The position numbers were made by a program, and so were the translations under genes. The notes under the pieces are model-generated. The model ran no database searches and was not told where the DNA came from. It worked only from the letters and a program-made list of their open reading frames with translations. This document shows, piece by piece, positions 275 through 62,570 of a stretch of 64,000 nucleotides of DNA. Source of the DNA: Eledone cirrhosa (taxonomy: Eukaryota); NCBI GenBank assembly GCA_964016885.1, contig OZ024740.1:258974001-259038000 (forward strand), read 5' to 3'. Numbering within the stretch: the stretch's first letter is position 1; every line of letters begins with the position of its first letter.

Positions 275-457
275 AGTTTATCTCGGGTTCAATCGGGGGT
301 AAGCACAGTCAGTAAGGTACTCAATACAAAGCAGAGTATAAATATAGAAAATCTTCTACAGGACTAGAACTGTTTCATTCGTGAAAATCATCAGGAAGCT
401 TGCTGGTGATTTCTCACGAATGAAACAGTTCTAGTCCTGTAGAAGCTCTTCTATATT
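275..457. mobile_element. HHR-bearing fold-back module (PLE pLTR-like) inserted in (TA)n
   Basis: 341-457 is an inverted repeat centred on aagctt. The left arm extends to 275 and carries gtactcaatac. Flanked by (TA)n. Same family at 4007-4052 and 47338-47388. Confidence 0.75.
353..398 (-). ncRNA. Minimal type I hammerhead ribozyme
   Basis: Minus strand reads cttc-CTGATGA-ttttcacgaat-GAAAC-agttcta-GTC-ctgta-gaag. The mirror copy on + (403-445) has a CTGGTGA core. Confidence 0.7.
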
Positions 458-513
458 AAATAAATATATATATATATATATATATATATATATATATATA
501 TATATATATATAT

Positions 514-735
514 GAAGGCGTGTGGCTGAGTGGTTAAAGAACTGGATTCGCAATCGTGAGGTTGTGAGTTCGATTCCTGGAAGGGGCGATGCGTTATTTC
601 ACAGCAAGACACTTTATTTCACGTTGCTCCTTCTACCTGGAGTTGCGACCGATAGATAGATAGTATTAGCAATTGGAAAGACCAGTGGAAACACTGTTTC
701 CTCGGTCCGATTTGACGAAAGTCGATCGTTAGGAA
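514..735 (+). mobile_element. tRNA-derived SINE (octopus OR-like)
   Basis: A-box tggctgagtggtt, B-box gagttcgattcc, TCG anticodon-like loop, then caagacactttatttcacgttgctcc body. Related copies at 9480-9790 and 54350-54505. Confidence 0.7.
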
Positions 736-896
736 TATATATATATATATATATATATATAAAGAGAGAGAGAGCGCGTGACAGAGAGAGAGAGAGAGAG
801 AGAGATAGATAGTTCGCGGTGCTGAGACCGGGAAGACCATTAATTATGGAAGAACTCAATGCATGGGAAGATGCATATATATATATATATATATAT

Positions 897-1172
897 AGTT
901 GTGTATAATGGTAGCTATGGTGCTTCCATAGGCGGTATATCAAATTTACCACTCGATATTCAGCAGAATAGAGTGTAGATAGTATAAAGAAAACGAAAAA
1001 TGTGATAAAATTTGGTCCGAACGAACTACCCGTGTCTGAAGGAACCTGCAGCCGTAGAATCATCCAGATCCATACAGGGACCATGTCTCGAGCTACCTGG
1101 CGGCGAAACAATTGAAACACGCAATAAATTAAGTCCAGATGCATCACTGATATTTCGTTTTCTTTATACTAT
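897..1172. mobile_element. Fold-back module with degenerate HHR
   Basis: Inverted arms atagtataaagaaaacgaaa (~979-998) / tttcgttttctttatactat (~1153-1172). cgtgt-CTGAAGG...GAAAC-aatt-GAA-acacg at 1031-1121, then aataaa. Between (TA)n tracts. Confidence 0.5.
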
Positions 1173-1209
1173 ATATATATATATATATATATATATATAT
1201 ATATATATA

Positions 1210-2116
1210 TAAATTAATAAAAATAATGAATAAACAAAGAAACAGTTCCTTATATTAAAAAATTCATCATTTTACGATCGTTTCTAGGATATATATGTTA
1301 GTGTTGGTATGCATATCATATAGATCTATGTAAAATATTTACAAACTATCAGAAGGAATATACATACCTACACATATATATGCTGTCTTCAGAAATAATG
1401 ATATTTGTTTATTGAAAAAAGCCAACAAAGCTTTAATACAATAGGTCTCTTTGGGAACAGGTTTTGAATTGACCAATAGAAAGATAGTGAAGGTGAAGAT
1501 GGTAAAATAGTAGTAATATAGCCTTAATTTAGGGGTAGAGGAAGGTAGATTTCAATTTTGGATGGAAAGAATATTATGAATGAAAGATTATTTTAGGGAT
1601 GAAAATAGGTGATATGCTGTCTTCCGAAATAATTATATTTATTCATTGAATAAAACCAACAAAGATTTAATATAATAGGTCTGTTTGGGAACAGGTTTTG
1701 AATTGACCAGTAGAAAGGTAATAACTGGCCAAATGGTATAATAGTAGTAATGGAACTTTAATTTAGGGGTTGGTTTTTTTCAATAAACAAATATCATTAT
1801 TTCTGAAGACAGCATATATATGTGTAGGTATGTATATTCCTTCTGATAGTTTGTAAATATTTTACATAGATCTATAGGATATGCATACCAACACTAACAT
1901 ATATATCCTAGAAATGATCGTAAAATGATGAATTTTTTAATATAAGGAACTGTTTCTTTGTTTATTCATTATTTTTATTAATTTATCTTGACTCTGTTTT
2001 CCTGTATTTTTCATCGAAAAATTTTTTTGAATACATCTCTTTTCATGATATTCGGATTACATTGAGTTCTTCATACGGAATGGACACTACCGTACATTTT
2101 GGTAGATTTATCTACA
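1210..2116. mobile_element. Fold-back PLE-like terminus with long-stem-II HHR
   Basis: 1210-1420 is the reverse complement of ~1773-1985. Internal direct repeat ~1378-1540 / ~1613-1770. The right arm continues with attgagttct (2061-2070). Related to 62140-62570. Confidence 0.75.
1264..1401 (-). ncRNA. Type I hammerhead ribozyme with ~100-nt stem II
   Basis: tcattattt-CTGAAGA-[~100 nt hairpin]-GAAAC-gatc-GTA-aaatgatga. Stem I is 9 bp with one G-U pair; stem III region acgatcgt is palindromic. Second copy on + at 1794-1931. Confidence 0.65.
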
Positions 2117-58923: not shown

Positions 58924-59327
58924 TAAGAATAAAAGAAACCACCATTAAATAACATTAAAATTATTTAATTGATTGACGATCGTTTTATATATATATATAT
59001 ATATATATATACACATATACATATATATACATATATATATATATATATACATATATATATATATATATATATATATATATATATATATATATATATATAT
59101 ATATATATATATATATATATATATATATATATATATATATATATATATATATATATATATATATATATATATATATATATATATATATATATATATATAT
59201 ATATATATATATATATATATATATATATATATATATATATATATATATATATATTTATTTATTTATATATATATAAGAATAAAAGAAACCACCATTAAAT
59301 AACATTAAAATTATTTAATTATTTAAT

Positions 59328-59517
59328 AGGGCGGTGGATTGGCAGTATCGGTAGAGAGTCGGATGCCATGCTTTCCAGCATAGTTACGTCCCTTTGCGGT
59401 CTGAGTTCAAATCCCGCCGAGGTTAACTTTGCCTTTCATCCTTACGGGGTCGATAAAATAAAGTACCAGTAATGTACTGTGTAATTGATGGCCCTGTGCC
59501 AAAAGTAGAAACAATTA
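59328..59517 (+). mobile_element. Full-length tRNA-derived SINE
   Basis: Homolog of 10640-10826, flanked by aattatttaat-type repeats (possible target-site duplication). Confidence 0.85.
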
Positions 59518-60124
59518 AAATTATTTAATTGACTATTTAATTAATTTGATCAACACAACAGGGATATTCATTTCTTCTGTTTTGATTTCTTCAGAATCTA
59601 CCAAATAACATAAATATTTACCAAACACATGTCCAAATATTTCAAGTCCCAATATTATATATATATATATTCTTTACGTTGTATGGTTAGATAACAGGTA
59701 GCTGGATTAGTGAGCTAGTCGTTCCGATTAGCAAACCGTGGTGAAATAATCAAGAAAAGCACTCAACATTATGTTATCTTCCATCATAGATATGGTATCT
59801 CGTGGGTGGTACAGGAGTTAAGTACTTCAATGAAAACTATGTGAAGGCCCGATTCCAATAACTTCTTTTATTATTTTATTTTATTATATTCCAGCCTTCA
59901 CTTGTTTTTCATTGAAGTCTGTGTGTGTATATATATAGAGAGAGATAGATATAGATATATATATGTAAATAAATATACACGGGTGTGTATGATTGTTTAT
60001 AAAAGATTATATTAATAAAAGGAATTCCAACTTTGTCTGATTAACTCGTTTTATTTACAATCCTTTAAAATTATAATTATATTATAATGAAATAGTATGG
60101 TAGAATATTAAATGTTAATTGAAC

Positions 60125-61375
60125 ATGATGTGTTTTTTAATTTTTATATGTATTCAAATATACTCTCGTCTTATCTATATATATATATGGAAGGTGTATG
60201 TGTGTGTTTGAAAACAATGTTGTCTCTGATCGAGATAAGACGAGAGTATATTTGAATACATATAAAAATTAGAAAACACATCGCTAGAAGAGCCGTTAAA
60301 ACAGACAAATGCTGTCAAAGAATGCCTCAGAGGATAGAGATCAGCTGCCAGTGGTCAACAGAGAGACAATCTACAAGGTGTGGGACAGGCAGATGAAATA
60401 TAGAAAACATTGAAATAGGAGGGGGACAAGGAGAAGTGTGTTGGCGCACAGAAGTCACCGGAAGAGGAAATAAAGAAAGGTGATGTACAAGTCAAGTTTA
60501 CACACACACTTATCTTCACCCCCATCAGCTCTCAAACAAGCAAAATGGTTTAGCACGATTTAATTGAGAGTACCATTTTAAAATGCTGAATCGTACATTG
60601 GAAAAATAAATCTTTCTGCTGCTATAACGTGTGTGGTAAAAGAAACAGCAGAGATAGAAGGACGACAGAAAACAAAGAAAAGAATAGTAATAAAGGACCT
60701 CAAAGTGGGATATCTATCCTAAATAGAAAACTAATTATAGCTATGATAAAGTTAAATGGAAAAAACAATATTGTCTCTGATCGAAACGAACCGAAATGGT
60801 TTTTGAATACACATAAACATGAGAAACCTGATCGCTAGAACAGCCGTTAAAACACACAAATGCTATCAAAGACAGTGATGGGCAAAAATGCCTCAGAGGA
60901 GAGAGACCAGCGGCCAGTGCTCAACAGAGAAATAATCCACAAGGTGGAGGACAGTCAGGTGAAATATAGGAAACATTGAAAGAGGAGGAAGATAATTAGA
61001 AGTGTGTCGGCGCACAGAAGTGACCGGGAGAAGAAATAAAGATTTATTTTTCGGTTGCACGATCCAGCATTTTAAAATGGTATTCTCAATTAAATCGTGC
61101 GAAACCATTTTGTTTGTTTGAGAGCTGATGAAGATGAGTGTGTGTAAACTTGTTTTGTACATCGTCTTTCGTTATTAACTCTTCCTGTAATTCTGTTCGT
61201 CAACACACTTTTCCTGTCCTTCCCCTCTTTCAATCTTTTCTATATTTTATCTGCCTCTCTCCCACCTTGTGGATTGTCGCTCTGTTCTCCGAGACATGTT
61301 TGCCTATCACTGTCTTTGACAGCATTTGGTTGTTTTAACGGCTGTTCTATTGCTGATTTTTCTCAATTCCATATG
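60125..61375. mobile_element. Nested direct and inverted copies of one interspersed repeat
   Basis: Copies at ~60205-60615 (+), 60765-61040 (+) and 61040-61375 (-). Short inverted arm 60128-60176 / 60233-60281. Confidence 0.75.
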
Positions 61376-62139
61376 TGTATATATATATATATATATATAT
61401 ATATATATATATATATATATATATATATATATATATATTCTAATACTTGGGGAGGGTCATATTGTTATAATATTGCCGGAAATAATAACAGAACACACTC
61501 ACTGTTTGGTTTGGGTTGGTATATCTTCTGTATCTTTTATATCTCCATAGTTAATTTATCTGGCAATCAATGTTTATCATTAACGGTTAAAAATACAGAT
61601 ATAAATATATATATATATATAAATATATATATAGTCTAACAAAGTTCTTTCGTCACACATCTGTGACATCATCAGTGGTACTATCATGTTTCCTCCCATT
61701 GTATTGTAATGCCTACGCCATTTTTATTTTATTTACTTACGCACACAAAGAAAAATCAGAGAAGAAAAAATTGTGCATTTATGATTTTGACCGAGAGACG
61801 AACGAAGCAGTGTGCCGCTACACTGCTTCGTCGTCTCTGAGTGAAGCTGCCTGGGTCAAGCTAAGTTCTATGCACTCACGGACAGTATACAACATATGGG
61901 GGAGGGGGACTCATGACCATATCTAGTAGAGAAAATTTTGGTTTAAAAAATTTTAGAAGCCAGAGTTAGGATTAATTTTAGAAATTGGAAATTAAAACTG
62001 AGTGTTTAAAAGTTTTTTGAAGCTTAATCAAATAAGTAGAGTTCGCACAGTTGACTGGTGTATATATATATATATATATATATATATATATATATATATA
62101 TATATATATATATATATATATATATATATATATACACAC

Positions 62140-62570
62140 AGAGGTATCCACTGTAAGTTGTGGGGTCTATTCTGTATGAAGAACTCAATGTAATCCATAT
62201 GTTGAAAATGTTGTAGGTTAAGATCAATCTCAGAAAACAATAAAACATTAAAAGGAAAACAGAGTCATTATATAAGTTAAAACAATGAAATAAAAAATCA
62301 AGTCATTAGAGAAACAGCTGGTGATATGCATGTAAGTAAATATTCTCTCTATCTGAAAGTTTGTAAACTTACATAGATCAATAACTGAGTATAGATACAA
62401 TGTATTATTACCATCTAGAAACGATCGTAAAGCAATGAAGTATATCTCTAATGACTTGATTTTTTATTTCATTGTTTTAACTTATATAATGACTCTGTTT
62501 TCCTTTTAATGTTTTATTGTTTTCTGAGATTTATCTTAACCTACAACATTTTCAACATATGGATTACATG
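62140..62570. mobile_element. Fold-back PLE-like terminus related to 1210-2116
   Basis: Arms 62189-62312 / 62445-62568; ctagaaacgatcgtaaa at ~62415-62431; gaagaactcaatgtaatcc tail. Confidence 0.8.

Follow-up and report, generated by a model that had tools for sequence, protein, structure and literature searches.

Inverted Penelope-like insertions in (TA)n of Eledone cirrhosa pair one tailed with one tail-less arm and were probably primed at two internal stems of one RNA

In the twin priming of LINE-1, a single RNA is copied into cDNA with both target strands as primers, which gives a head-to-head inversion, with one primer at the poly(A) end, a variable second site, and arms that do not overlap. 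For the inverted arms of Penelope-like elements (PLEs), the closest precedents lie in the available portions of three papers: head-to-head order is the usual arrangement, with a tail on one inverted pseudo-long terminal repeat (pLTR) and palindromic inner junctions for which self-priming was proposed (PMC3846280); an inverted copy with a one-sided tail of 30-40 bp, with resolution by the endonuclease (EN) as the likely cause, was reported in the paper that describes the Hydra clade (PMC8557442); and a PLE protein cut and extended both strands in vitro, with two internal starts bounding the tail and a dimer predicted (PMC11167929). Both of the latter papers call the origin of the inverted arms and one-sided tail unresolved. 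Here, we analyze a 64,000-nt stretch of the Eledone cirrhosa genome (the window; contig OZ024740.1, hereafter C1, positions 258,974,001 to 259,038,000), whose ten inverted modules were ascribed in an initial annotation to Penelope and to a twin-priming-like reaction; the inverted pLTRs that it treated as known for Penelope are described in PMC3846280 and PMC8557442. Within the same portions of the literature, head-to-head arms with a one-sided tail (PMC3846280, PMC8557442) and two internal reverse transcriptase (RT) starts (PMC11167929) are already known; what is added here is a pairing rule and a duplicated stem.

Judged from their sequence, the modules are 5′-truncated Penelope-like insertions in (TA)n, of Hydra type where an open reading frame (ORF) is linked; we think it probable that they are head-to-head insertions ending on TAT words before two bulged stems, through two internal primings on one RNA. 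They share with the EN-bearing PLE units in the available text of PMC3846280 and PMC8557442 the head-to-head arms, the tail on one arm, palindromic inner junctions, partial tandems, and AT-rich or (TA)n targets; however, the present tail measures about 60-135 nt instead of 30-40, the one-tail pairing is quantified here as near-obligate, and the conserved bulged stem found here after both ends has no description in that text. The Hydra clade, as far as the accessible part of PMC8557442 describes it, likewise has a C-terminal GIY-YIG domain, a CxCx5C linker, a DKT motif, (TA)n targeting, and a hammerhead near the 3′ end, whereas here the hammerhead core is altered in families A, B, and E, and membership is assigned from motifs. 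Two internal starts bounding the tail, cutting and extension of both strands, and a template reaching the next unit are common to Poseidon_Ac (PMC11167929, available portion), although there the start lies in an AC-rich stem-loop without target homology, whereas here each site has TAT microhomology and its own stem. Neither the twin stem nor obligate one-tail pairing was found described in the literature searched, outside which lie most subscription papers and the Repbase reports.

All ten window modules are head-to-head, with the antisense arm on the left, the sense arm on the right, and one arm overhanging the other by about 48-153 nt, and the 3′ ends of both arms point outward throughout, as initially annotated. 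For families A, F, G, and B, the sense orientation is fixed independently of this geometry, by downstream tracing of endonuclease matches that ties them to ORFs; the linked ORF anchors the modules at 36565, 48239, and 55183 (family A), 34616 (F), 36095 (G), and 62140 (B). At 1210 the sense follows from 72% homology to family B and at 275 from a hammerhead core on the sense strand, while at 897 and 59671 it is set by the stem motif alone. The tail is one-sided, as had been claimed; the TTGAG box placed in it is present in eight modules but reads TCGAG at 897 and 36095, and is half of an RNA stem (described below) rather than a free landmark.

The pairing was quantified from these ten modules, 80 loci from three families, and a 1.864-Mb sample in nine blocks chosen by position, window included, from a (TA)n-rich genome of 3.0 Gb whose composition and by-eye likeness to Hydra-1_Obim suit a cephalopod. 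When 1,580 TA-bounded segments were scanned without regard to family, 182 carried an inverted arm at their end, 154 of them asymmetric and 28 symmetric, and among 117 overhangs of up to 130 nt the box faced outward in 58 and inward in 8. End-mapping with references for 11 families recovered 429 arms in the sample, and their 3′ ends were bimodal in every family, the distribution that the initial annotation had proposed looking for. The 133 head-to-head modules comprised 111 with one short-ended and one tailed arm (ST), four with two tailed arms (TT), three with two short arms (SS), and 15 with one end unclassified, often from a diverged tail; ST pairing thus accounts for 111 of the 118 classifiable modules, compared with 59 expected under independence (P=1.7e-25). 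A tail-free family A query retrieved 30 loci, 17 of them ending at the short site and the other 13 at the long site, with one of each in all 14 visible modules, and 18 of 20 family C loci had one tailed and one tail-less arm. Modules occur at about 70 per Mb of the sample, and most arms, in all 11 families, adjoin TA or another microsatellite. There was no single 5′-out module among 16 tail-to-tail neighbors less than 600 bp apart in the sample, because 15 of these are split by a TA run and the sixteenth has a shorter TA run and a tail piece that belongs to another repeat.

The 28 symmetric segments, some Tc1/mariner-like by eye, the small size of many modules (79 of the 111 ST modules are ≤300 bp), and an AGCT centre common among family C copies might suggest that the short palindromes are miniature inverted-repeat transposable elements (MITEs), or a single master palindrome amplified as a unit. 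The arms are, however, colinear with the 3′ ends of ORF-bearing PLEs, in agreement with the Penelope-like origin first proposed, and the ends are asymmetric; terminal inverted repeats reaching both ends, with a fixed internal structure, were not found in the modules, in which target-site duplications would be masked by the (TA)n target. Family C copies also vary in their short end, without arm-specific variants, among loci recovered by a query biased toward the AGCT centre, and family A centres vary copy by copy. In family A, module sizes cluster around 165-207 bp and the centres differ, which means that independent stops recurred about 65 nt upstream of stem 1, with an RNA 5′ end or a structural block at that point as candidate causes; since centre junctions differ, the short, coding-less palindromes arise independently, as the annotation had it, and not by MITE copying. 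Amplification as MITEs is largely refuted for the ten modules, and we give it almost no credence.

The box forms the 3′ side of a bulged stem with covariation, RCTC…TN-GAGY (stem 1), in which the RCTC half pairs with the box. The initial annotation was right that the other arm has a discrete end upstream of the box, but the distance is fixed to the RCTC half: the distance from short end to box changes with loop length, whereas RCTC lies 3-8 nt beyond the last aligned base of the short arm in eight of the ten modules, and 15 nt beyond it at 57938. Short arms stop on a TAT word 6-10 nt before stem 1, and in most families a TA run begins 6-10 nt before RCTC while nearby longer TA words go unused. 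The anticipated TA-like microhomology is present: of the 125 short junctions that could be scored, 90 have 3 nt or more of alternating TA in common with the element, compared with 12.7% at random positions. Among the 49 overhang clusters left after a microsatellite filter removed 5 of 54, RCTC lies ≤18 nt from the short end in 26 (3.9 at random positions), and RCTC is accompanied by a distal YNGAGY in 19 (1.1 at random positions). Across 22 families, which share ancestry and are therefore partly dependent observations, the bulge-adjacent pair is Watson-Crick in all 22 (TA 14, CG 7, GC 1; 11.2 when shuffled), the outer pair is A-T in 13 and G-C in 7, and a 2-nt bulge accommodates 56 of 66 inner pairs, compared with 5-13 for bulges of 0, 1, or 3 nt. 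Read by eye, the published sea-cucumber consensus Hydra-2_Ajap has a 3′ end with the stem and an upstream TATAT, Hydra-1_Amil and Hydra-1_Crog end in partial forms of the stem, and Hydra-1_Obim and Hydra-1_Ajap have stem-less ends, probably at the short site.

The long end has a similar setting. In read-through copies, the long end is followed by TAT, 3 nt, and a second stem, 6-9 nt past the end; this stem 2 was first met in a full-length family F copy and a tandem-array family, and then in family J and K read-throughs. The prediction that other families carry it was tested by searching the genome with the end of each family's tail joined to the motif. Family A had 302 genomic matches, found after the prediction, and the control none; nearly all of the 100 matches listed of these 302 read TAT-CTA-GCTC-CTAC…GTAG-TA-GAGC. 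Family G gave 291 read-through matches, and family D three read-through copies genome-wide. Since the element in read-through copies goes on beyond the long end to a further stem, the two ends belong to the same kind of internal site, and the tail is a spacer between two such sites. The twin-priming-like reaction of the initial annotation is thus probably right in outline, with two discrete end sites used once each in 111 of 118 modules, but not in placing one priming at the RNA end. Unlike in LINE-1 twin priming, both sites are fixed and internal and the arms overlap; the primer at the RNA 3′ end that characterizes LINE-1 has no counterpart here, where the element continues beyond the long end.

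A TAT word at both ends would be as compatible with cleavage as with priming, and the EN might instead resolve a longer DNA intermediate, with the stems or tail recognized in cDNA, cuts made at the TAT words, and the ends joined to the TA target. In their available portions, PMC8557442 proposes the tail as a product of EN-mediated resolution, and PMC11167929 cites tail-dependent cleavage by a Drosophila EN and shows AT-rich cleavage. RT start sites nevertheless bound the tail in vitro (PMC11167929, same portion), and resolution alone does not account for the presence of one site in each arm of 111 of 118 modules; we consider it unlikely.

Within modules, the match between arms exceeds that between modules in five of six families (A, C, F, K, and I). 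Upstream of stem 1, the two arms are usually copies of the same sequence. A single RNA permits this only with strand displacement, a point in favor of two separate RNAs, both strands being primed by an asymmetric dimer with each subunit preferring one stem. Two RNAs would also suit the four TT modules and the one cross-family TT junction (compared with 133 same-family modules), but no mixed module occurs among the 27 family A modules in which several subfamilies are visible, the tailed arm rarely outruns its partner (5/60), and the strict asymmetry would require an additional rule, making two templates unlikely. The cross-family junction, on C1 at about 258,795,600-258,795,850, joins two tailed arms head-to-head, of families G and A, and is a possible two-RNA event or nested insertion.

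In the 60 mapped modules, the tail-less arm extends further 5′ in 29 and the tailed arm in five, and the 5′ ends lie within 10 nt of each other in 26 (permutation mean 21.2, p=0.03) and within 5 nt in 21 (compared with 15.0, p=0.009). The 39 young centres show a 1-6 nt overlap in 13 and unmatched or inserted bases in 25. These near-coincident 5′ ends and unmatched centres, together with the self-priming from palindromes at inverted junctions proposed in the available part of PMC3846280, favor a fold-back in which a single cDNA, or an antisense template, doubles over and serves as its own template. For the 29 modules with the longer tail-less arm, of which 55183-57938 is the most extreme, fold-back of the tailed cDNA as the sole source is, however, contradicted, because a copy cannot exceed its template; the tailed arm also has extra sequence, and the fixed short end would be unexplained. 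Self-priming could still shape the centre junction, but as the source of the modules it is very unlikely. Hammerhead cleavage as the origin of the 5′ ends was also considered and rejected, as no clear pile-up was seen at the cleavage site.

Two internal primings on one RNA, the reading that we prefer, would require a template RNA carrying both stems, by read-through or in a 5′ leader. Each stem would place one RT, probably of a dimer, the endonuclease would open both strands of the self-complementary TA run, and each free 3′ end would anneal to one TAT and be extended. The downstream RT would copy the tail, displacing or trailing the upstream cDNA, and the two cDNA ends would join by short microhomology or small inserts; where both cDNAs stopped about 65 nt upstream of stem 1, a coding-less palindrome of 190-200 bp would result. 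More generally, we see an even chance that Hydra-clade PLEs possess a template-positioning element in duplicate, in the form of a bulged RCTC/GAGY stem that has its TAT primer site 6-10 nt upstream, and that the two copies dock the two RTs of the dimer so that one RNA programs both insertion junctions.

The evidence for this reading is genomic, and several points weigh against it. Seven of the 118 classifiable modules are TT or SS, 163 of the 429 arms were left unpaired by the pairing script (some partners are <28 nt or broken by internal TA runs), and junctions inside one family are non-independent counts. The full motif is missing from 30 of the 49 overhang clusters, many of which may not be PLE ends, and the first site of family K has no RCTC. 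The genome search for stem 2 gave no match for family B and only one for family E, to another family after a TA run, and family C read-throughs have an unbulged GCAC/GTGC hairpin variant at a similar distance, in ~196-bp monomers. The tailed arm is much longer in some modules, family G shows no within-module excess of arm likeness, and subfamilies active at different times could alternatively produce same-subfamily arms. In vitro, initiation was without homology to the cut DNA and without a strand difference (PMC11167929, available portion).

A standing question about PLEs nonetheless becomes directly testable, because the twin cis-signal has fixed spacing to both ends, and it bears on how telomerase relatives define the template start. 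If the reading is true, a telomerase-like, RNA-structure-defined start site would be used twice; this would account for the tail and inverted arm of PLEs as well as for the abundance of ~200-bp palindromes, and would offer a portable signal for two-ended target-primed reverse transcription. The modules are mistakable for MITEs or microRNA hairpins, from which the asymmetry and the stem tell them apart.

Individually, the modules vary in family, size, and which arm bears the tail (coordinates are those of the window). The family C module at 275..463 has its tailed arm on the minus strand (275-~401; ACTC 337, TTGAGT 324), a short plus arm, an AGCT centre, and a canonical hammerhead core in sense. 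In the family D module (897..1170), an inverted overlap of only about 30 nt joins a tailed minus arm (897-~1007; ACTC 974, TCGAGT 956) to a short plus arm (1008-1170). Three modules have the short arm on the minus strand and the tailed arm on the plus strand: that of family E, the B-like family (1210..2116; short 1210-1768, tailed 1769-2116, ACTC 1991, TTGAGT 2062), that of family F, a family linked to a Hydra-type ORF (34616..34965; ACTC 34883, TTGAGT 34897), and that of family G (36095..36520; short 36095-36253, tailed 36271-36520, GCTC 36438, TCGAGC 36478). Family A contributes a module at 36565..36766, with a tailed minus arm (ACTC 36637, TTGAGT 36619) and a short plus arm whose end is at CCTAT, and a perfect palindrome of subfamily A2 at 48239..48440 (tailed minus arm 48239-48378, ACTC 48311, TTGAGT 48293; short plus arm 48379-48440). 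Its long insertion consists of a tailed inverted minus arm (55183..55416; ACTC 55255, TTGAGT 55237) and a tail-less plus arm (55417..57938) with a 5′-truncated Penelope-like body, which stops 15 nt before the stem and 10 nt short of the modal site. A separate, lone short-ended family A stump on the plus strand (55097..55154) shares the TA run of this insertion and lies tail-to-tail with it. The family H module (59671..59918) has a tailed minus arm with a 153-nt overhang (ACTC 59818, TTGAGT 59766), and its short arm ends at 59918 beside a TG repeat, adjoining CTGTGTGTG rather than TA.

The family B module (62136..62569) is atypical. Its tailed arm is on the minus strand (62136-62312; ACTC 62265, TTGAGT 62188), but the second arm overruns the usual short end at 62488, stops inside the stem, and gives way at 62569 to unique non-TA sequence. 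Of the 22 second arms found in 30 loci of family B, 20 have their end about 81 nt before this point, at the TATATA word ACTTATATA (window 62480-62488); the stop right before the box at 62568, which the initial annotation noted, is therefore an outlier. Elsewhere in the window, a Neptune-type PLE (25045-26605) with a CxxC linker, GIY-YIG, and a canonical hammerhead is tail-less, and its module (25144-26605) is head-to-head with both arms sharing one end site; this element may be exempt from the one-tail rule. Small family L modules lie in tandem at 34975-35890, several broken by GA repeats, probably through local duplication.

In families A, F, G, and B, a single ORF that runs in the sense of the arms encodes both RT and GIY-YIG endonuclease, and the inverted 5′-truncated copy, optional tail, and partial tandems are those of PLEs. 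Within the long family A insertion, broken Hydra-type reading frames on the plus strand (55395..56660) encode RT (YRDD) together with a GIY-YIG endonuclease at the C terminus, according to translation and by-eye comparison with the Hydra proteins of the PMC8557442 supplement; the linker of this window copy reads CNC, with F at the third Cys position. The full-length family F copy has KSDKTNN, IRWR, and CNCRDRSKC, by eye the Hydra traits of DKT, an RWK-like motif, a CxCx5C linker, and C-terminal GIY-YIG, without CCHH. This copy, on C3 at about 150,263,400-150,267,400, spans one exact unit, beginning at stem 1 and finishing at the short site, and is preceded by an inverted tailed arm. A Pfam scan gave no match to the RT or EN pieces, and an Rfam scan gave weak microRNA-like and other hairpin matches, with no hammerhead among the 150 listed of 286. 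By regular expression, a strict hammerhead core was found in sense in families C, F, I, and K and a variant core in A, B, and E, but none in G, D, H, J, or L. In the putative hammerhead-like folds of families A, B, and E, the changed core is CTGAGAAG in 31 of 36 family A arms tallied and CTGATAG in B and E (window 57837-57915, 1769-1920, and 62340-62430).

Head-to-tail arrays at C1:91476593-91487266, C2:356030062-356031902, and C9:23835421-23836507 consist of 3.54-kb family A units, 299-bp family A mini-units, and ~196-bp family C monomers, and are retrozyme-like. The hammerhead monomers of family C and the ~299-bp arrays of family A resemble non-LTR retrozymes as non-autonomous PLE derivatives (bioRxiv 10.64898/2026.07.22.740005); the available text of that preprint and of the Octopus vulgaris repeat paper contains no treatment of inverted one-tailed insertions.

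The window also contains a non-LTR retrotransposon (11200-16356) whose long RT ORF (RVT_1, zf-RVT) is preceded by an ORF1-like frame, which suggests an L1/Tx1-like element, and a PIF1-like helicase fragment (48835-49521) that is probably Helitron-derived. Two long minisatellite arrays (16700-21700 and 28400-31400) have units of about 33 bp and 51 bp, with several frames open, and a tRNA-like match at 5856-5926 (Rfam tRNA, 37.5 bits) is possibly the head of a short interspersed element.

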